This document shows positions 3,567 through 54,448 of a stretch of DNA of 64,000 nucleotides, piece after piece. Source of the stretch: Patescibacteria group bacterium (GTDB taxonomy: Bacteria > Patescibacteriota > Patescibacteriia > JAHIZJ01); assembly GCA_041650335.1 (NCBI GenBank), contig JBAZLK010000006.1:5788-69787 (forward strand), given 5' to 3'. Position 1 is the first letter of the stretch. Each line of letters begins with the position of its first letter. The notes under the pieces are model-generated. The model worked only from the letters and a program-made list of their open reading frames with translations. It ran no database searches and was not told the origin of the DNA. A program made the translations under genes and the position numbers.

Positions 3567-5588
3567 TTATGCGGTCGTGGGCGCGGCAAATTGGCTATTA
3601 TACAGGGAGGCATAATAGCCATCCCGGGCGAGCAGTTCCTCGTGTTTCCCTTGTTCGACAATGTTGCCGTCGCGGATGACCAGGATAAGGTCGGCGTGAC
3701 GGATGGTTGAGAGTCGGTGGGCGATCACGAAGCTCGTCTTACCGCGCATGAGCCGTTCCATAGCTTGCTGAATCAACACCTCAGTGCGGGTATCAACCGA
3801 GCTTGTGGCTTCGTCAAGGATGAGCATTGGCGTTTTTATGAGCATTGCCCGCGCAATCGTCAGAAGCTGCTTCTCGCCCTGTGAAACATTATCCGCTTCC
3901 TCGCCGAGCATCATGTCATAGCCATGCGGGAGCGAGCGGACAAAATGATCGACATGCGCTGCTTTGGCCGCTTCAACAATCTCCGCCTCAGACGCGTCCG
4001 GCTTGCCGTAGGCAATGTTCTCGCGGATTGTGCCGTTAAAAAGCCAGGTGTCTTGAAGGACCATGCCGAACAACCGGCGGACGCTCGAACGCTTCAACGT
4101 CCGGGTGTCGACGCCGTCAATTTTTATCGAGCCGCTGTTGACGTCGTAGAATCGCATCAGCAGATTAACAAGGGTGGTTTTTCCGGCGCCAGTCGGTCCG
4201 ACAATGGCCACGCGCTGGCCGGGATGGATCTTCGCGGTGAAATCCTTGATGATGGTTTTGCCCGTATCATAGCCGAAGACGACGTGATCAAATTCGACGG
4301 CACCGCTCACCCGGGCCAAGTCTTGGACATCCATCGGCTCGGCTGTTTCTTCGGCCTCAGCCAAAAACTCAAATACCCGCTCAGCCGAGGCCGCGGTCGA
4401 CTGAAAAACATTTGCGATATTGGCCGTCTGAGCAATCGGCTGGGTGAAGAGATTGAGATATTGGATAAACGCCTGAATGTCCCCGATGTTTACACGGCCG
4501 TTGATCGCCAGCCAGCCGCCGAGCACAGAGACGGCGACGAAATTTAAATTGCCGATAAAATTCATGAGCGGAAACATCAAGCCGGAGAGAAACTGAGACT
4601 TCCAGGCGCTTCGGTAGAGATCGTTATTAATGCCGATGAATTTCGCGATGGAGCGTTGCTGGCCGTTGAAAACCTTCATGACGCTGTGGCCGCTATACAT
4701 TTCTTCAATATGGCCGTTGATATGACCGAGCGTGTCTTGCTGCTCTGTAAAATACCGCTGGGAGCGCTTTGTGATCAGCGCGATCACGCCAAAACTGATC
4801 GGCAACGCAATAACAGAAACTAGCGTCAGCTGCCAACTGATCGATAGCATCATGGCCAGAACGCCAATAATCATAGTGGCGGAGGTGACCACTTGGGTCA
4901 GGCTCTGATTCAGCGTCTGGCTGACCGTATCGACATCATTGGTAACGCGGCTTAAGACCTCGCCATGAGTCTGTGTATCGAAATATTTCAGGGGCATCCG
5001 ACCGATTTTTGTAGAGATATCACTTCGAAACCGGTAACTAATCTTCTGTGACACGTTTGTCATAACCCAACCCTGGATATAGCTAAACAGCGCGCTTAAG
5101 CCATATAGAAGCAGCAACTCTTCAGCGATCGTAATGAGCTTGTCGTAGTGAAAGATTGGCTTGGTGGACAAGTCGAGCGACTTGATAGCGTTCAACGCAG
5201 TGGAGGGTATTTTATCGACCACGGTCGGTGGCAAACGCTGAATGAGCTGTTCCCCGGTCGTGCCCGGCGGCAGTTGTTTCGTCAATTCGGTATAGGCGGT
5301 GCGATCGATGAAATCCGTCACGACCTGGTTTGTCATTCGGCCAAGGATCTTCGGGCTGACAATGGCGAAAACAGTGCTGGCGATGGCAAACACGAGGACC
5401 ACGATGATTTGAATCCAAAACGGACGCAAGTACGAAATCAACTGTCGCATGGTTCGTTTGAAATTCTTGGCCTTCGCCCCAGCCACCATCATACCCATGG
5501 GGCCACCGCGACCCATTGGTCCGAATCGGCCGGGTGGTGTCGGCGGAAGATTGCCGGCGGTTGAGGTTGTTCGCGGCTGTTCGCTCAT
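3567..5588 (-). CDS. ABC transporter ATP-binding/permease fusion (exporter, MsbA/MdlB-like)
   Basis: Six-TM domain followed by an NBD with Walker A GPTGAGKTT, signature LSQGEKQLL and Walker B ILDEATSSVD. Gly/Pro/Met-rich N-terminal extension. Confidence 0.9.
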   Translation of the reverse strand: MSEQPRTTSTAGNLPPTPPGRFGPMGRGGPMGMMVAGAKAKNFKRTMRQLISYLRPFWIQIIVVLVFAIASTVFAIVSPKILGRMTNQVVTDFIDRTAYTELTKQLPPGTTGEQLIQRLPPTVVDKIPSTALNAIKSLDLSTKPIFHYDKLITIAEELLLLYGLSALFSYIQGWVMTNVSQKISYRFRSDISTKIGRMPLKYFDTQTHGEVLSRVTNDVDTVSQTLNQSLTQVVTSATMIIGVLAMMLSISWQLTLVSVIALPISFGVIALITKRSQRYFTEQQDTLGHINGHIEEMYSGHSVMKVFNGQQRSIAKFIGINNDLYRSAWKSQFLSGLMFPLMNFIGNLNFVAVSVLGGWLAINGRVNIGDIQAFIQYLNLFTQPIAQTANIANVFQSTAASAERVFEFLAEAEETAEPMDVQDLARVSGAVEFDHVVFGYDTGKTIIKDFTAKIHPGQRVAIVGPTGAGKTTLVNLLMRFYDVNSGSIKIDGVDTRTLKRSSVRRLFGMVLQDTWLFNGTIRENIAYGKPDASEAEIVEAAKAAHVDHFVRSLPHGYDMMLGEEADNVSQGEKQLLTIARAMLIKTPMLILDEATSSVDTRTEVLIQQAMERLMRGKTSFVIAHRLSTIRHADLILVIRDGNIVEQGKHEELLARDGYYASLYNSQFAAPTTA

Positions 5589-12077: not shown

Positions 12078-12101
12078 TACTGGTGCCCTCGGAGGGAATC
12101 G
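12078..12101. repeat. 24-bp direct repeat identical to the 3' end of tRNA-Arg(TCG) (att-like remnant)
   Basis: tactggtgccctcggagggaatcg at 12078-12101 is identical to 12241-12264, which covers the tRNA 3' acceptor/T-arm. Confidence 0.8.
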
Positions 12102-12243
12102 TGTCCTGGGCAGCGGCGGACTTGCCACCGGCAACTCCGTCGGCGTCTCGCAGCGCCCTTCGGGCGAGCTCACTGCTGCCCGTTCGATTCTTAAACCCAC
12201 TTTTCTTCAATAGCACTTACTATATTTGTGTCATTGCCCTTAC

Positions 12244-12318
12244 TGGTGCCCTCGGAGGGAATCGAACCCCCATCACTGGTTCCGAAGACCAGCGCATTAT
12301 CCATTATGCTACGAGGGC
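12244..12318 (-). tRNA. tRNA-Arg (anticodon UCG)
   Basis: Reverse complement GCCCTCGTAGCATAATGGATAATGCGCTGGTCTTCGGAACCAGTGATGGGGGTTCGATTCCCTCCGAGGGCACCA, with anticodon loop CTTCGGA. Confidence 0.85.
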
Positions 12319-23857: not shown

Positions 23858-23913
23858 ATTTGTTCGGGTATAAAAAAGTCGTTTAAGAAAATGCTTTGTA
23901 GTTTTAATATGAT

Positions 23914-24048
23914 GGTGGACCCTACCGGGCTCGAACCGGTCCCCGGGGTTCGGCGGTCCAGAGACATCGCCTCACCCGTCTCATCTCCTCGCGGGCACAA
24001 GCAGTTGTGTCCGCTCGTGGACTCGACCCTCTTCCATGCGCATGGAAG
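23914..24048 (-). pseudogene. truncated tRNA-Ala(GGC)-like copy (anticodon arm to CCA) carrying an 86-nt GC-rich insertion in the variable region
   Basis: Shares tggtggaccctaccgggctcgaaccggtc (the 29 nt from T-arm to CCA) and the anticodon arm ctcttccatgc(g)catggaag with the intact gene 48 bp upstream. Lacks the D-arm and 5' acceptor. Has one extra nt in the anticodon loop. Confidence 0.7.
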
Positions 24049-24090
24049 TTTGTATAAATAAAGAGGAGACTCATATTTATTTATCTATTT

Positions 24091-24166
24091 TGGTGGACCC
24101 TACCGGGCTCGAACCGGTCACCTCTTCCATGCCATGGAAGCGCTCTACCAAATGAGCTAAGGGCCC
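24091..24166 (-). tRNA. tRNA-Ala (anticodon GGC)
   Basis: Reverse complement GGGCCCTTAGCTCATTTGGTAGAGCGCTTCCATGGCATGGAAGAGGTGACCGGTTCGAGCCCGGTAGGGTCCACCA, with G3:U70. Confidence 0.85.
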
Positions 24167-42648: not shown

Positions 42649-42937
42649 GACTTCTCCTCCTCATGTCGAGCCGACGACAACTGAAGAAGAGATAGTTATG
42701 TCCCGTGGTTCGATGGCTCTCACCACAGGCTCTGGTTTTGGCACCTTCTTCCAGCCGGTTTGGCCGGAAGGGTTGCCGAGCGGTCAATGGGCCAGCACCC
42801 TCGCGCTACTCGGCATAACTTCTCGACGGCGAGGACAGTGTAGGAAAGAACGCTTCGTCTGTCAAATTACGACTGACGAAGGTTTACAAAAGGCCGATAA
42901 TAGGCTACCATACAAAAACGTAACACCTATTTTTTAA

Positions 42938-50153: not shown

Positions 50154-51071
50154 ATGATTGATACGAAAATTCTCGAAAAGATACCCGTCTTGGCAGGCCT
50201 AAGCACACCCGAGCTGGCCGCGCTGTCAAAAATTATCACGGTGAAGAAATACAAGAAAGGCGAAGTTTTGTTTGAACGAGGCGATGTCCGAAAATCATTT
50301 TTCATTGTTTTAAGCGGACAGGTTCATGTCTACCGGATGTTCAACGATGAGGTTCAGACCCTGGCCATCCTCGGTAAGAACAATTTCGCCGTCGAAAGCG
50401 CGCTGACCAATCCACGACTCAAACATGACCATAGCAGCGAAGTCACTGAGGCCGGCGACATGATCGAAATTCTCGGCAAGGATTTTCTCCGGTTAGCCGA
50501 TGACTATCCGCAAATCGCCAACAAGGTCTATGGCAACATCATCGCCAATTTAGCCGAGCGTCTCCATCATGCGAATAACAAACTGGTCACGATCTACTCG
50601 ACCGGCAAAATCGCCTCGACCTATACCGATCTCGATAATCTGACCGAACTGATTACGACGACGATCCTGAAAATCATCAAGGCAAACCGCGCACTCTTTG
50701 CCTTTTATCGGCCGAAGGAAGGGACGGTCTCGATCATCCAGGCGCGCGGGTATCCGAGCGACCAACGGATAAAAAATCTAAAAATAGATCTCTTCAAAGA
50801 TCCGCTCCTCGGACTGATGTATAAGACGCGGCGTGAAATTATCGTCACGCGCGAGATGTACCGGAAAAAAGCGGCGTTGCGTGTCGCCTATTCCAGCCCG
50901 GGCATGATGGGCGTGCCATTGCAGATCGGCGACCGGGTGGTCGGCGCCATCCTTCTGGGTGATAAAGTTGATATGCAGGACTTCAACTACAACAATCAAA
51001 TACTCCTCAATATTATTGCCCGACAGATTGTCCTGCCGATTGCGATGGCGGAGTCAGCTGAAACTGTCTAG
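50154..51071 (+). CDS. cyclic-nucleotide-binding domain plus GAF domain protein
   Basis: N-terminal cNMP-binding beta-roll (FERGDVRKSFFIVLSGQV) and a C-terminal GAF-like domain. Confidence 0.55.
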   Translation: MIDTKILEKIPVLAGLSTPELAALSKIITVKKYKKGEVLFERGDVRKSFFIVLSGQVHVYRMFNDEVQTLAILGKNNFAVESALTNPRLKHDHSSEVTEAGDMIEILGKDFLRLADDYPQIANKVYGNIIANLAERLHHANNKLVTIYSTGKIASTYTDLDNLTELITTTILKIIKANRALFAFYRPKEGTVSIIQARGYPSDQRIKNLKIDLFKDPLLGLMYKTRREIIVTREMYRKKAALRVAYSSPGMMGVPLQIGDRVVGAILLGDKVDMQDFNYNNQILLNIIARQIVLPIAMAESAETV

Positions 51072-51129
51072 CCTCATTCAATATACTAAAAAACACTTGT
51101 CCGTAATGGCCGAGTGTTTTTTTTATTGA

Positions 51130-51218
51130 TGGTGCCGCGGGAGAGCCCCGAACCATGCAAGATTCGGGGGAACTCTCATGGGGTTGCCCCGGACCCATCG
51201 CGGTTCGGGGTAAGTGTC
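51130..51218 (-). pseudogene. degenerate 3' fragment of tRNA-Leu(UAA) (variable arm, T-arm, acceptor, CCA) interrupted by two GC hairpins
   Basis: Reverse complement ...GGGGCAACCCCATGAGAGTTC[CCCCGAATCTTGCATGGTTCGGGG]CTCTCCCGCGGCACCA matches the 3' third of the intact tRNA-Leu. A 24-nt hairpin is inserted in the T-loop, and a second hairpin replaces the anticodon-stem 3' strand. Confidence 0.65.
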
Positions 51219-51478
51219 GTTGGCAAGCTGTCTCTAAACATCAGTTTCAACGTAGATCTGCCTTTTGATGTTTTAAAGTAACGCTCGCGTCGGACAGCAT
51301 CAAGTTTTGATAAAAAAGCTTCGTAGCCAATTATTGCCGGCCTGCCCATATGCGCAGTTGTCCAGCATTTACCATTGTTATGCTCGGTAATTCTACGCCT
51401 CAAGTTATTTGTTCTACCAATATACATTCGTCTCTGTGTCGGAGAAAAGAGGAAATACACATAATGCATAAAACTCAT
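51176..51478 (-). CDS. GIY-YIG nuclease family protein (small stand-alone GIY-YIG, UPF0213-like)
   Basis: HYVYFLFSPTQRRMYIGRTNNLRRRITEHNNG matches the GIY-(10-11)-YIG...R...E...N catalytic motif. The last 11 codons overlap the tRNA-Leu 3' fragment. Confidence 0.75.
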   Translation of the reverse strand: MSFMHYVYFLFSPTQRRMYIGRTNNLRRRITEHNNGKCWTTAHMGRPAIIGYEAFLSKLDAVRRERYFKTSKGRSTLKLMFRDSLPTTLTPNRDGSGATP

Positions 51479-51511
51479 CGTGTGTCTCCCTGTCGTTTAT
51501 TTCATTCCTGT

Positions 51512-51598
51512 TGGTGCCGCGGGAGAGAATCGAACTCTCATGGGGTTGCCCCCACAGGATTTTAAGTCCTGCGTGTATACCAGTTCCACCACCGCGGC
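51512..51598 (-). tRNA. tRNA-Leu (anticodon UAA), type II with long variable arm
   Basis: Reverse complement GCCGCGGTGGTGGAACTGGTATACACGCAGGACTTAAAATCCTGTGGGGGCAACCCCATGAGAGTTCGATTCTCTCCCGCGGCACCA. Confidence 0.85.
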
Positions 51599-51640
51599 AC
51601 CAACAAGATTGAAAAGTTTTTTAATTTGATTTTATCCGGC

Positions 51641-51720
51641 ACCACGCCAGGTGCCGGATATCCCGAACCCATCGTGGTTCGGGATAAGTCCTGCGTGTAT
51701 ACCAGTTCCACCACCGCGGC
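51641..51720 (-). pseudogene. 5' fragment of tRNA-Leu(UAA) (acceptor 5' strand through anticodon position 35) fused to GC hairpin
   Basis: The 36 nt GCCGCGGTGGTGGAACTGGTATACACGCAGGACTTA are identical to the intact gene, then sequence diverges into TCCCGAACCACGATGGGTTCGGGA. Confidence 0.65.
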
Positions 51721-51727
51721 AGATACA

Positions 51728-52195
51728 TTATCGAATAAGTTGGAAGAGAACAATCCCGGTGGCCACGGCGACGTTCAGAGATTCTTTCTGGCCGCGCATC
51801 GGAATTTCCACCACGCGGTCGGCCAGCGACAATATTTTCGACGGCAAGCCTTTTACTTCATTGCCGACCACGAGCGCGAAAGGCGCGCGTACCCGACAAG
51901 TGTTATATTGAACGCTTTTGCGGGATTGTTCAAGGGCGACAATCGTATACCCGTCATTCTTCAGACGCTTGATGAGCCGGACGGTCTGGGCGTGGTGTTC
52001 CCAGGGCAAATACTTTTCTGCGCCAAGGGCAACTTTGGCAATTTTGTGATGGGGTGGCCGAGGCGTAATGCCGCCAAGGAAAAGTTTTGTAACACCAGCT
52101 GCATCGGCTGTTCGGAACATGGCGCCGACATTGAACCGGCTCCGGATGTTATAGAGGACGAGGATAGCGTCATGGTTTTTCTTCACGACAGGCAT
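51728..52195 (-). CDS. SpoU/TrmH-family RNA 2'-O-methyltransferase
   Basis: SPOUT motifs VVGNEVKGL and IPMRGQKESLNVAVATGIVLF. Confidence 0.8.
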   Translation of the reverse strand: MPVVKKNHDAILVLYNIRSRFNVGAMFRTADAAGVTKLFLGGITPRPPHHKIAKVALGAEKYLPWEHHAQTVRLIKRLKNDGYTIVALEQSRKSVQYNTCRVRAPFALVVGNEVKGLPSKILSLADRVVEIPMRGQKESLNVAVATGIVLFQLIR

Positions 52196-52617
52196 TGCTG
52201 GACAAAGCCATCAACTACTTTTTGATACGCCCCGAAACTACATTCAGTATAGTTTTCTTTCGTCAGCCAGCGATAGCCCTTTGATTCCTCGTTGATAACA
52301 ATCTCGCCTTCGAGAAAACGGCAGCAATAAAAAACTAAGAACAGATTCATATTCGGATGTCTAACATTCGTCGGTGCGACGCGAAACTTAAAAACGTCAA
52401 AGAGATTATTAATCACAAAGCGTATATTTAAGCCGAGTTCCTCCAACAATTCACGGCGCAAGCATTCCGATACTGGCTGATCGATTTCCGACGCTTCAAT
52501 CCGGCCGCCGGGGACGTCCCAATATTCGCTATAAGCATCTTTCAACGCTAAGAAGCGCGAACCGTTCTGGAGAAAGGCTTTTATTCCTACCTGAAAATTT
52601 TTTCCTGCCATTGCCAT
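52183..52617 (-). CDS. NUDIX hydrolase
   Basis: Nudix box GGRIEASEIDQPVSECLRRELLEELGL. Confidence 0.8.
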   Translation of the reverse strand: MAMAGKNFQVGIKAFLQNGSRFLALKDAYSEYWDVPGGRIEASEIDQPVSECLRRELLEELGLNIRFVINNLFDVFKFRVAPTNVRHPNMNLFLVFYCCRFLEGEIVINEESKGYRWLTKENYTECSFGAYQKVVDGFVQQCLS

Positions 52618-52769
52618 GGTTTTATTCGTTCAATTATGTAAATTTACCATGAGGGACAGCAGGTGAACAAGCGCTTGTTCACCTGTGGTAGAGATTATCA
52701 AAAATGCCAATAAAATTGTATGAATAATTATTATAACTCTAATATTAGCCAAATATATTAAATAAGGTC

Positions 52770-52798
52770 TTGACAACAAGCAAAAAGTACGCTATTAT
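52770..52798 (+). promoter_or_regulatory. consensus sigma70 promoter TTGACA-17-TATTAT
   Basis: ttgaca at 52770-52775 and tattat at 52793-52798, at the start of an 800-bp gene-free region. Confidence 0.55.
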
Positions 52799-52804
52799 GC
52801 CTTG

Positions 52805-52993
52805 TTACACGATTGATTAGCGAACTTTATACGATCAAACGAGGAGAGAGTTTCCGCTAATACTAGCGGAATCGCCGCCCTGAGAAAGCGGCAAAAAAGC
52901 AACATTAGCCATATTCCTAGTTTAGGGTGGTGGTTTGTTGCGGCGTTCTCTCTTCTGATTGAACATCGCAGCAAAGCGCCACCCTTTTTTTTC
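52805..52993 (+). ncRNA. candidate small RNA (~190 nt) ending in a long Rho-independent terminator
   Basis: The transcript contains hairpins ccgcta-atac-tagcgg and gccgc-cctgagaaa-gcggc, and ends in an 18-bp imperfect stem GGGTGGTGGTTTGTTGCGGCG...CGCAGCAAAGCGCCACCC plus a T8 tract. No ORF. Confidence 0.35.
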
Positions 52994-53114
52994 TGCCGAA
53001 GCTCAACGTGTAGGCAGGTTGTTTGTCCGAATATCGGGGCTGATAGAGGTCACACATATTACATGGGCCTGAACTATCGCCCCGGGATTCGGGGAAATAA
53101 ACCAGAGGGGACGG

Positions 53115-53240
53115 ACATGGAGGGGAGTAGAGAACGGTTTGGATAGCTGATTCATTCGGGCTAACCCTCGAGGCTTCAGTGAAACAAACCGGTCCGCCGA
53201 GCTTCGGCTCAAAGACGGACACCTCGCCTCCAGCTTCGTC
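53115..53240 (+). ncRNA. structured RNA-like element, tandem copy 1
   Basis: Conserved blocks ACATGGAGGGGAGTAGAGAACGG, TGATTC, CGGGCTAACCCTCG, GGCTTCAG, GAGCTTCGGCTCAAA (a UUCG-capped hairpin) and CTCGCCTCCAG. The flanks of the UUCG hairpin are self-complementary (GTCCGCC / GACGGAC). Confidence 0.4.
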
Positions 53241-53332
53241 CCTTTGGGCTTCCGCCAGAGCGTACCGCGGCTATTGTCGATGGTATGCTCCGGCGGGAAA
53301 AGGCACCTTACAATAAATATCCCCCCGCACCG

Positions 53333-53456
53333 ACATGGAGGGGAGTAGAGAACGGTCCGCTGACCTGATTCTCCCGGGCTAACCCTCGCGGCTTCAGGAA
53401 AGCGCACTGGGCATGTGAGCTTCGGCTCAAAACATGTCAGTCTCGCCTCCAGTTCG
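53333..53456 (+). ncRNA. structured RNA-like element, tandem copy 2
   Basis: Same conserved blocks as copy 1. The variable segments differ but stay self-complementary (CATGT / ACATG flanking the UUCG hairpin; CTGAC / GTCAG), i.e. compensatory changes. Confidence 0.4.
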
Positions 53457-53503
53457 GTGCTGAGTATGCCTCGAACGTTGACAATTTATCCTCCGCCTGA
53501 CTT

Positions 53504-53512
53504 TGGTATAAT
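53504..53512 (+). promoter_or_regulatory. extended -10 promoter (TGgTATAAT) for island gene A, embedded in 12-bp inverted repeat atttatcctccg/cgggaggataaat
   Basis: tttggtataat at 53501-53512, with an inverted repeat at 53484-53495 and 53551-53562. Confidence 0.4.
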
Positions 53513-53617
53513 ACGAAAGTTAGACGGAGCCTCCTGACAATAGTTGTTGGGAGGATAAATTCAGGGTACGAGACACGGGGGTACGACACGGCAGAAATGC
53601 CAAGGAGGATCGAGATC

Positions 53618-54448
53618 ATGAAGAAGTTCTTCGTCGGCATGGGTGGCATCGCGGTCACGGCCATCATCTTGACCATCATCTTTGCCTTCTGGGGCCACAA
53701 TCTCAGTGAGCGCAAGGGCGAGCTGAACACCTGGAGCGGGGAACTGGCGAGCAAGGAGGCCGTGCTGAACCAGAAGGCTGAGGCACTCAACAACGCTCAG
53801 GCCGCGCTCAACCAGGCAAAGAACACGTTCGATGAACGCGTTCAGCGCGCCGAGTACATGCGGCAGCTCTTCACCGGCTTTCTGGCTCCGAGCTGGGAGC
53901 AGCAGGTGAAGATGGCGCGGGATTCCTACGGGGTCCTCGACCAGCGCTTCGATCAGTATCGCACGGTCGCCGAGGCGATGGCCAATCTCGGCAACTACAA
54001 CCTCACCTGGGAAGACGTCGGCATCAACGGCAACGAAGTGCGTTCGGCGCACGACCGGCTCGGACGCACCCTGGCGACCGAGCTGATCCAGTGCCTGGAC
54101 CAGCCGATCGAGTCACGGCGCGGACATTTCATCGGTCAGGGCGAAGGCTCGATCTCACTCGACGACCCCTGGGACGTCGGTCGCGAAATCGTCCAGCTGG
54201 TGAACGCCAGCGGGACGACCATCAAGGACTACGGCCTGAGCCCGGAACAATTCAGGGCCAAGCTGGTCCAAGACGCCCGCGAGCTCCTCGGCTATGCCCG
54301 GACCCTCAAGGGGACGGAGCAGTACCGCTGGGCCATGCAGTCGCTCGGTTCGTCCATCAACGAGTACAACATCGCCGGGCGCGAGCTCGGCCTCACCCAG
54401 AAGGAGAGGGATTTCCTCTGGGGGGAGTGCCGCTGCTACGTTCGGTGA
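53618..54448 (+). CDS. island gene A: hypothetical membrane-anchored coiled-coil protein
   Basis: RBS aaggagga; MKKFFVGMGGIAVTAIILTIIFAFWG TM helix, then a coiled coil and a C-terminal globular region. 63% GC. Confidence 0.45.
   Translation: MKKFFVGMGGIAVTAIILTIIFAFWGHNLSERKGELNTWSGELASKEAVLNQKAEALNNAQAALNQAKNTFDERVQRAEYMRQLFTGFLAPSWEQQVKMARDSYGVLDQRFDQYRTVAEAMANLGNYNLTWEDVGINGNEVRSAHDRLGRTLATELIQCLDQPIESRRGHFIGQGEGSISLDDPWDVGREIVQLVNASGTTIKDYGLSPEQFRAKLVQDARELLGYARTLKGTEQYRWAMQSLGSSINEYNIAGRELGLTQKERDFLWGECRCYVR

Follow-up and report, generated by a model that had tools for sequence, protein, structure and literature searches.

A GIY-YIG nuclease gene, tandem hairpins and partial tRNA copies at a tRNA-Leu(UAA) locus of a Patescibacteria bacterium: a candidate tRNA-lodging cassette

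The stretch of DNA analysed here (the window) comprises 64,000 nucleotides (nt) of contig JBAZLK010000006.1 from a Patescibacteria group bacterium (assembly GCA_041650335.1, positions 5,788 to 69,787). At positions 51130-51720, on the minus strand, it carries an intact tRNA-Leu(UAA) gene accompanied by a small GIY-YIG nuclease gene, GC-rich hairpins and partial copies of the same tRNA gene. The explanation that we favour, and hold to be probable though far from assured, is that this locus is a selfish or semi-domesticated cassette that lodges in tRNA genes and supplies the missing part of the tRNA. On this view, compact cassettes of this kind form a widespread family that always leaves one intact tRNA gene. 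Their parts are a nuclease gene of about 85 residues, one or two GC-rich hairpins at a single-stranded position of the tRNA, and a duplicate of part or the whole of the tRNA. In the window, an older hairpin-carrying copy of tRNA-Leu(UAA) would have been divided, its 5′ piece (copy A) and its 3′ piece (copy B) now lying on either side of the intact tRNA gene and the nuclease gene. An earlier reading made from the sequence alone (the sequence-only reading) had offered two explanations, a selfish GIY-YIG cassette, undescribed so far, that targets tRNAs and has a hairpin repeat of its own, or the scars of serial integrase-mediated events, and the co-occurrence of gene, hairpins and tRNAs described below supports the former. 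No description of a nuclease-hairpin-tRNA cassette is found in the full-text literature searched.

The tRNA-Leu(UAA) locus and its nuclease

The elements of the locus, all of those named by the sequence-only reading among them, are listed in the 5′ to 3′ order of the minus strand.

51728-52195, minus strand: SpoU-type methylase gene (Pfam SpoU_methylase), upstream neighbour of copy A
51720..51685, minus strand: copy A, nt 1-36 of tRNA-Leu(UAA), identical at 36/36 (direct-repeat scan)
51686..51659, minus strand: hairpin C, TATCCCGAACC-ACGATG-GGTTCGGGATA, perfect stem of 11 base pairs (bp)
51660..51633, minus strand: hairpin D, TATCCGGCACC-TGGCGT-GGTGCCGGATA, 11-bp perfect stem
51632..51628, minus strand: AAATC, tRNA nt 37-41, where copy A resumes past hairpin D (read from sequence)
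51598..51512, minus strand: intact tRNA-Leu(UAA), 87 nt (ARAGORN; Rfam RF00005, 60.1 bits)
51478..51176, minus strand: open reading frame (ORF) of the GIY-YIG nuclease, 100 amino acids (Pfam GIY-YIG PF01541)
51215..51211, minus strand: ACTTA, tRNA nt 32-36, start of copy B (direct-repeat scan)
51210..51187, minus strand: hairpin A, CCCCGAACC-GCGAT-GGGTCCGGGG, homologous to hairpin C
51190..51170, minus strand: copy of tRNA nt 47-67, identical at 21/21 (variable arm, 5′ strand of the T stem, TTC of the T loop)
51169..51146, minus strand: hairpin B, CCCCGAATC-TTGCAT-GGTTCGGGG, in the T loop after TTC
51145..51130, minus strand: copy of tRNA nt 72-87, identical at 16/16 (3′ strands of T stem and acceptor, CCA)
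51122..51088, minus strand: terminator-like hairpin with a T run and 15-nt arms (87%), end of the tRNA-GIY-copy B unit

Copy A, which starts 7 nt past the SpoU stop codon, contains the 5′ strand of the acceptor stem, the D arm, the 5′ strand of the anticodon stem and anticodon bases 1 and 2; a second pairwise comparison with the intact gene gives 37 nt at 100%. Hairpin C, with arms at 51686-51676 and 51669-51659, separates anticodon base 2 from base 3. The fusion of the 5′ copy to this hairpin had been described correctly, but the hairpin is not single: hairpin D abuts it in tandem and is followed by tRNA nt 37-41. Both hairpins have the dinucleotide TA in common, which gives the signature TA-C-TA-D-TA, and as single-stranded DNA the C/D region folds with −25 kcal/mol (z = −4.7 against shuffles). 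The same resumption of 4-5 tRNA nt beyond a double hairpin is found at three loci of other genomes (L004, L006 and L026). A 27-nt A/T-rich spacer separates AAATC from the intact tRNA-Leu(UAA), the only tRNA-Leu(UAA) that ARAGORN and Rfam recognize at the locus.

The nuclease ORF starts 33 nt past the intact tRNA and is preceded, 7 nt upstream of the start, by the Shine-Dalgarno sequence GGGAG. Its final codons, about 18, read through hairpin A and the tRNA fragment, and its stop codon (TGA, 51178..51176) falls within copy B, as had been noticed before. Copies A and B present the same junction, ACTTA plus hairpin A being 89% identical to ACTTA plus hairpin C. Hairpin A takes the place of tRNA nt 37-46, with its 3′ arm overlapping the GGGG of the variable arm, and hairpin B substitutes for four T-loop nucleotides, GATT. 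Their location at the anticodon stem and in the T loop of the 3′ copy agrees with the sequence-only reading, and so does the exactness of the fragments, which match the intact gene at every position wherever they align.

The terminator-like hairpin that ends the unit is unlisted in the consensus scan because its stem is imperfect. Since all elements lie on one strand and there is one terminator-like hairpin, the mRNA of the nuclease probably derives from the tRNA transcript; a promoter scan of the minus strand gives no sigma-70-like site in the interval from SpoU to the tRNA. The 22-nt hairpin consensus matches twice in the 64 kb where no match is expected, and neither a consensus search nor a general scan for ACC..GGT hairpins gives further copies in the window. 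The GIY-YIG gene is the sole ORF with a family match between the tRNA repeats, and a family search of the neighbouring genes, which are NUDIX, SpoU and cNMP/GAF, gives no integrase within the 600-bp unit or next to it. The junction between the SpoU stop codon and copy A is reproduced in an independent assembly (Logan SRR8542065, L130), found through an exact match to the SpoU protein; this short contig ends inside the repeat, as expected of a real duplication.

The nuclease matches the Pfam family GIY-YIG over residues 4-74 with 45.7 bits, the gathering cut-off being 22.6. Among 15 homologues Y8, Y19, G21, R29 and H33 are invariant and R28 and E65 nearly so, and all of them are present in the window protein. 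The homologues are 78-111 residues long and align with residues 1-82 of the query only; the tail of about 18 residues encoded by the tRNA fragment is unconserved among them. In the Protein Data Bank (PDB), phmmer finds the UPF0213 proteins EF2693 (1ywl, E = 4e-4) and BH0048 (1zg2, E = 4e-3). The AlphaFold model (predicted local distance difference test score 83.6) has 1zg2 as its top structural match, followed by Slx1 (7cq2, 6seh and 4xlg), and gives E > 1 with 1ln0 and 1yd6, which represent the I-TevI/UvrC side. Judged from alignment and model, the protein is a bare minimal GIY-YIG domain of the Slx1/UPF0213 type, of about 85 residues, and a predicted structure-specific nuclease. A minimal form of GIY-YIG without any DNA-binding module was described by Dunin-Horkawicz et al. 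(PMC1564403). The two-domain organization of homing endonucleases, GIY-YIG plus a DNA-binding domain, is absent, the domain filling the conserved part of the protein; hence the earlier assignment to the classic homing nucleases does not hold. About 3000 clusters at 50% identity in a library of 1.84 billion proteins match the window protein, and the exact-protein look-up gives no identical record. Gene calls of the family often carry 20-90 extra N- or C-terminal residues (for example L003, L024, L027 and L063), because the ORF stays open across hairpins and tRNA fragments.

The closest homologue, with 73% identity, is located on a 697-kb metagenome contig of a distant relative, in the same gene order: NUDIX, SpoU, tRNA-Leu(UAA), GIY, then cNMP/GAF and UDG. 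There, hairpins are placed upstream of the tRNA, a hairpin sits in the T-loop copy at the GIY end, and the 3′ tRNA fragments are degenerate; loci L001 and L002 show the same layout. As the layout is common to the window and a distant relative, the cassette predates the split of both lineages, and the sequence-only view of a recent duplication or rearrangement has to be abandoned. The fragments of the window match their own tRNA and not that of the relative, which points to concerted evolution (gene conversion) or re-creation. Between window and relative the nuclease is 73% identical, against 59-62% for NUDIX, SpoU and cNMP/GAF, with a nonsynonymous divergence (dN) of 0.24 against 0.32-0.34 for the neighbours. 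This better conservation, at saturated synonymous sites, indicates from the sequence comparison that the protein is under purifying selection.

Recurrence beside tRNA genes and the hairpin junction rule

A scan of one genome per species gives more than 390 relatives of the nuclease, of which the best 80 loci (L-numbers), amounting to 552 kb, were examined. Gene, hairpins and tRNAs occur together in many of these 80 other genomes. Of 79 tRNAs, 61 lie within 400 bp of the GIY match, in 86 of the 552 kb, where about 12 are expected by chance; the excess is about 5-fold over expectation and the density about 18 times that of the rest. With one exception (60 of 61), these tRNAs are on the strand of the nuclease gene. 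An exact partial tRNA copy of at least 12 nt is found within 800 bp for half of the same-strand tRNAs (30 of 60), compared with 7 of 1400 shuffled controls, and in 24 of these 30 loci the nuclease gene is positioned between the partial and the intact copy.

The duplicated part depends on the order of the unit. Units with the gene ahead of the tRNA have, upstream of the gene, a 5′ copy that begins at tRNA position 1; units with the tRNA first have, downstream, a 3′ copy that reaches the tRNA 3′ end. Copies of the 5′ part upstream of the gene are present at 18 loci other than that of the window. Breakpoints are exact, either after the third anticodon base (L004, L006 and L026) or after TTCR (L015, L029 and L073), and the inserts, of only 140-450 bp, are seen in dozens of genomes. 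Loci L004 and L025 resemble the window in that a hairpin-bearing tRNA is split into 5′ and 3′ pieces around the intact copy and the nuclease gene.

Tandem double hairpins follow the gene closely: the 87 kb that lie within 400 bp of GIY contain 32 of them and the remaining 549 kb contain 5, an enrichment of about 40-fold. In 24 of the 32 the paired hairpins have 2-3 nt in common, arranged as X-H1-X′-H2-X, where X is the tRNA sequence at the site (the anticodons CTG or TTG, TCA, TA, or the CG/CA of TTCG/TTCA) and X′ stands for the reverse complement of X; random pairs of hairpins would show this arrangement in far fewer than 1% of cases. In L003, L004, L006, L018, L023, L026, L042 and L043 the double hairpins stand exactly at the breakpoints. 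On one side a double hairpin is flanked by 4-7 more nucleotides of the tRNA, and then by the gene. The sites of insertion are the D loop (L004), the anticodon loop, the T loop after TTCR and the CCA end, that is, the single-stranded parts of a tRNA, and hairpins are always at the mRNA end distal to the tRNA. In the Tyr clade CCA makes the first bases of the hairpin core CCATGAAG. The core families CCATGAACC, CCCTAAACC and CCCAGCACC recur in distant genomes and differ between nuclease clades.

When the proteins are clustered, individual clades adhere to a single tRNA and a single layout across phyla, examples being Gln(CTG), Tyr(GTA), Glu(CTC), Gly(TCC) and Ser. Their hosts are labelled Patescibacteria, Omnitrophota, Planctomycetota, Verrucomicrobiota and others; in the manner of homing endonucleases, the same target gene is retained in unrelated hosts. 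One clade of 18 has no tRNA nearby, and therefore linkage to tRNAs is a property of clades and not an artefact of the whole family. At L020 and L025 the intact tRNA-Leu is flanked by halves whose acceptor, variable and T arms are unlike its own; these halves are remnants of another allele and indicate replacement events.

Several contexts are recorded as observations of their own. Protein P0007 (L122-L129) is encoded in an rpsO-GIY-NYN operon whose stop and start codons overlap and which has no tRNA, apparently a housekeeping context. Genes related to tRNA or to nucleotide hydrolysis recur as neighbours, in the order NUDIX-SpoU-tRNA-GIY in the window (neighbours at 51728-52617) and L001 and as TsaD-tRNA(Glu)-GIY-NUDIX for P0009 (L119-L121), which could be coincidence or a functional link. 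At L027, ARAGORN finds just upstream of GIY an inverted pair of tRNA-Gly(CCC) genes that abut each other, one on the plus strand (3807-3878) and one on the minus strand (3879-3950).

Other features of the window, among them two further tRNA loci with partial copies, are the following.

12078..12243, minus strand: partial copy of tRNA-Arg(TCG), with an A/T-rich spacer, GAATCG, two GC-rich hairpins, CGATTC and the exact 24-nt tRNA 3′ end
23908..24090, minus strand: partial copy of tRNA-Ala(GGC), with an anticodon-arm copy, a GC-rich insert of about 85 nt, the T arm and the 3′ strand of the acceptor
42693-42821, minus strand: S-adenosylmethionine (SAM, S-box) riboswitch, Rfam 49.7 bits, above the gathering score
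53456..53329 and 53238..53111, minus strand: two GC-rich units of about 128 nt, 77% identical, in the ORF-poor region 52630-53560

The sequence-only reading had seen at the Ala and Arg loci the same arrangement as at the Leu locus. An intact gene followed by an exact 3′ fragment is indeed present at both, with a GC-rich insert between them; the nuclease gene is not. A tblastn search with all 90 family proteins matches 51176-51478 only and gives no GIY gene, even a decayed one, at either locus. The partial copy at the Ala locus (23908-24166) has a complete T arm and an 8-nt palindromic loop, ATGCGCAT, in place of ATGGCAT, and its insert folds no better than shuffles (z = −0.4). The Arg locus (12078-12318) has the same design as a tRNA-Gly locus of another genome (L070, 912-1082): the intact tRNA, GAATCG(AA), two hairpins, CGATTC and the rest of the 3′ end. 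This design, an inverted T-loop copy that closes a double hairpin, may represent a gene-less relative of the cassette. The comparison gives no sequence common to the Ala and Arg inserts and the Leu locus, or to Ala and Arg; a link of both loci to the Leu cassette, through hairpins in a T-loop copy, is plausible. The unit of about 128 nt also occurs twice in non-coding DNA of the relative L001/L002 (6965-7093 and 5193-5284, 74-77% identity). Rfam gives nothing for it at E ≤ 1, and it resembles a structured RNA of an unknown family, conserved and present in several copies.

Proposed mechanism and rival explanations

In the mechanism that we propose, the nuclease would recognize the hairpin or cloverleaf DNA of tRNA genes and not a long sequence; such recognition of shape is suggested by the Slx1-like fold and the lack of a DNA-binding domain. 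Cutting would take place at loop positions with a stagger of 2-3 nt, and repair of the break would copy the cassette in, the partial tRNA copies serving as homology arms. The survivors would be only those events that leave an intact tRNA, and recurrent cutting and repair would hold the copies identical to the working gene. In the displaced fragment the hairpins would fill the site of the cut, and they may in addition stabilize the free end of the mRNA. Two palindromic modules could bridge a non-palindromic overhang (X ... X′ ... X), so that the double hairpin would be, speculatively, a product of cutting and joining. Mobility of the cassette, including cleavage and homing, is what we infer.

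A further-reaching version, about which we are tentative and rather doubtful, is that nuclease and double hairpin constitute a mobile element of a new class, in which a structure-specific nuclease is the driving agent and the target is chosen by shape. The enzyme would then recognize the cloverleaf or cruciform DNA into which tRNA genes and its own hairpins extrude, cut at single-stranded loops and at the CCA tail with the 2-3 nt stagger, and hairpin modules would be joined to both ends. Spread between genomes would proceed by replacing tRNA gene halves.

An unlikely alternative is that the gene belongs to the host, encoding a small Slx1-like factor of repair or RNA metabolism merely co-transcribed with tRNAs, while hairpins and copies come from a separate process, either hairpin-forming repeats that invade tRNA loops or local tandem duplication followed by decay. 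The synteny with the distant relative and a conservation above that of the neighbouring genes would be natural for such a factor. The same can be said of the partial 3′ copies that carry hairpin inserts and no GIY gene at the Ala, Arg and L070-Gly loci, of the members in ordinary operons such as rpsO-GIY-NYN, and of the clade of 18 without a tRNA nearby. Moreover, TrmH, a tRNA methylase, is on record as fused to GIY-YIG (PMC1564403), and a SpoU methylase is the upstream neighbour here. A host factor leaves unexplained, however, why, in 24 of 30 loci, the partial and the intact copy have the gene between them. Double hairpins are enriched about 40-fold beside the gene, the other 63 kb of the window have none, hairpin families co-vary with nuclease clades that hold one tRNA species across phyla, and the unlike tRNA halves at L020 and L025 indicate replacement.

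Serial integration into tRNA-Leu by a tyrosine integrase, with later deletion and GIY-YIG as leftover cargo, would account for the classical attL/attR picture of an intact tRNA, an insert and a direct repeat of the 3′ part, as seen in copy B and at the Arg and Ala loci. As Williams is said to have described in 2002, integrases prefer the anticodon-loop and T-loop sublocations, which the breakpoints here fit. We nevertheless regard this explanation as very improbable and the second proposal of the sequence-only reading as unsupported. An integrase is found neither in nor beside the unit, whose neighbours NUDIX, SpoU and cNMP/GAF are conserved in synteny; the inserts are tiny (140-450 bp) and present in dozens of genomes; and only 2 relatives occur in 2.9 million viral contigs. 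Copies of the 5′ half upstream of the gene, at 18 loci, are not what tRNA-targeting integrases leave, and the hairpin junction rule and the insertions at the 3′-CCA have no counterpart at att sites. Functional split or intron-bearing tRNAs, in which hairpins would be removed or halves joined in the RNA with the nuclease as processing enzyme, can hardly be credited. The hairpins do lie where tRNA introns classically occur, or next to it; the halves could pair through hairpins C and A, which complement each other; and tRNA-Leu(UAA) is a known intron host. Nevertheless, the same tRNA always has an intact gene next to the fragments, copy A ends at nt 41, copy B lacks the 3′ strand of the anticodon stem (nt 37-46) and has a broken T loop, and most partial copies elsewhere are truncated.

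Further candidates were rejected. For a group I intron or another described RNA, Rfam, run at the gathering score on the whole window and at E ≤ 1 on 50900-53700, gives only the tRNA at this locus, and the fragments are not complementary exon halves. For a split tRNA of the Nanoarchaeum type, the intact gene is present and the 3′ piece has no nt 37-46. A dispersed repeat, such as a repetitive extragenic palindrome (REP) or a miniature inverted-repeat transposable element (MITE), was discarded with no other hairpin copy in the 64 kb and 5 double hairpins in the 549 kb off GIY, and a phage vector with only 2 relatives in the viral collection.

The tRNA-lodging cassette has its own difficulties, and the following points count against it: (i) the intact tRNA still holds the presumed target, and how carriers escape re-cutting is unexplained; (ii) the cleavage site and target of this protein are predictions from sequence and model; (iii) partial tRNA copies without a GIY gene exist (Ala, Arg, L070-Gly and L051), and duplication may therefore not need the nuclease; (iv) no cassette-free (empty-site) allele is found among the related loci, which are only three (L001, L002 and L085) and all carry the cassette, a metagenome scan with the cNMP/GAF neighbour returning only the already known, poorly sampled lineage; (v) long syntenic residence and strong purifying selection also fit a domesticated host gene; (vi) identical-protein look-ups of P0009 and P0007 give one context each, with no sign of recent jumps; (vii) an exact partial copy is present in only half of the tRNA-linked loci and a perfect double hairpin in a third; and (viii) the 80 loci were chosen as those most similar to a single alignment and come mostly from metagenome-assembled genomes, and some of their taxon labels may be unreliable.

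If the cassette interpretation holds, part of the bacterial Slx1-like UPF0213 family would acquire a biological role, and selfish DNA would be seen to enter the single-copy essential tRNA genes of small genomes by bringing or duplicating the missing part. It would also explain why metagenome-assembled genomes contain stray halves of tRNAs, contigs that break at tRNAs and small ORFs called too long, and imply horizontal replacement and concerted evolution of tRNA gene halves. A shape-reading nuclease of 85 residues would be, in addition, a very small scaffold for engineering. The junction rule X-hairpin-X′-hairpin-X is a concrete mechanistic prediction, testable by simple biochemistry.

Comparison with known systems

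None of the closest known systems unites a bare nuclease of the Slx1 type with double hairpins at exact loop positions and with partial duplication of the tRNA; each shows some likeness to the cassette. In fold and motifs the window protein is like the UPF0213 proteins (E. coli YhbQ, B. subtilis YazA, EF2693 and BH0048) and eukaryotic Slx1. The latter cuts branched and stem-loop DNA, an activity that would suit hairpin or cloverleaf targets. Eukaryotic Slx1 requires Slx4 and a RING/PHD domain, whereas the window protein has neither. Neither PMC1564403 nor PMC7017083 links UPF0213 proteins to tRNA genes, hairpin elements or mobility.

SegB of phage T4 is a free-standing GIY-YIG gene in a tRNA cluster that produces 2-nt 3′ overhangs and is inherited together with its flanks (PMC2330249). 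It has in common with the cassette a stand-alone GIY-YIG gene among or in tRNA genes, and the 2-3 nt junction repeats found here fit a SegB-like stagger. Enzymes of the SegB type differ from the window protein in possessing a C-terminal DNA-binding domain and in belonging to the homing endonuclease/UvrC branch; for its part, the element of the window type is chromosomal (2 viral matches) and comes with partial tRNA duplication and double hairpins, unlike SegB.

Integrative elements that target tRNAs share with the cassette the direct repeat of the 3′ part, the breakpoints in anticodon and T loops and the preservation of an intact tRNA. The cassette differs from them in having no integrase, in its small units of 0.4-0.6 kb, in the duplications of the 5′ part and in the hairpins at its junctions. 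The REP/BIME-RAYT (BIME, bacterial interspersed mosaic element) and IS200/IS605 systems also place a small nuclease gene between palindromic hairpins, and in them, as in the cassette, a short sequence at the foot of the hairpin matches the target. Their enzymes are of the HUH/Y1 type, they show neither specificity for tRNA loops nor duplication of gene parts, and REPs are dispersed in hundreds of copies, all of which sets them apart.

In Allomyces atp6, a mobile mitochondrial ORF for an endonuclease brings a duplicate of the end of its host gene. As in ORFs of this type, the endonuclease gene of the cassette offsets its own insertion by duplicating part of the target gene. Mitochondria also provide a likeness to the hairpins: the double-hairpin elements of Allomyces (Paquin 2000) and the repetitive hairpins of sponges (PMC2800124) are GC-rich and some of them lie beside tRNAs, and GC-rich palindromes flank mitochondrial tRNA genes in Neurospora, according to the account of Yin 1981 given in PMC2800124. 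The mitochondrial hairpins are organellar, are scattered through intergenic DNA in many copies and do not go with one particular nuclease gene; those of the cassette, by contrast, are found only at the cassette, occupy exact tRNA loop positions and follow the X-H-X′-H-X rule.

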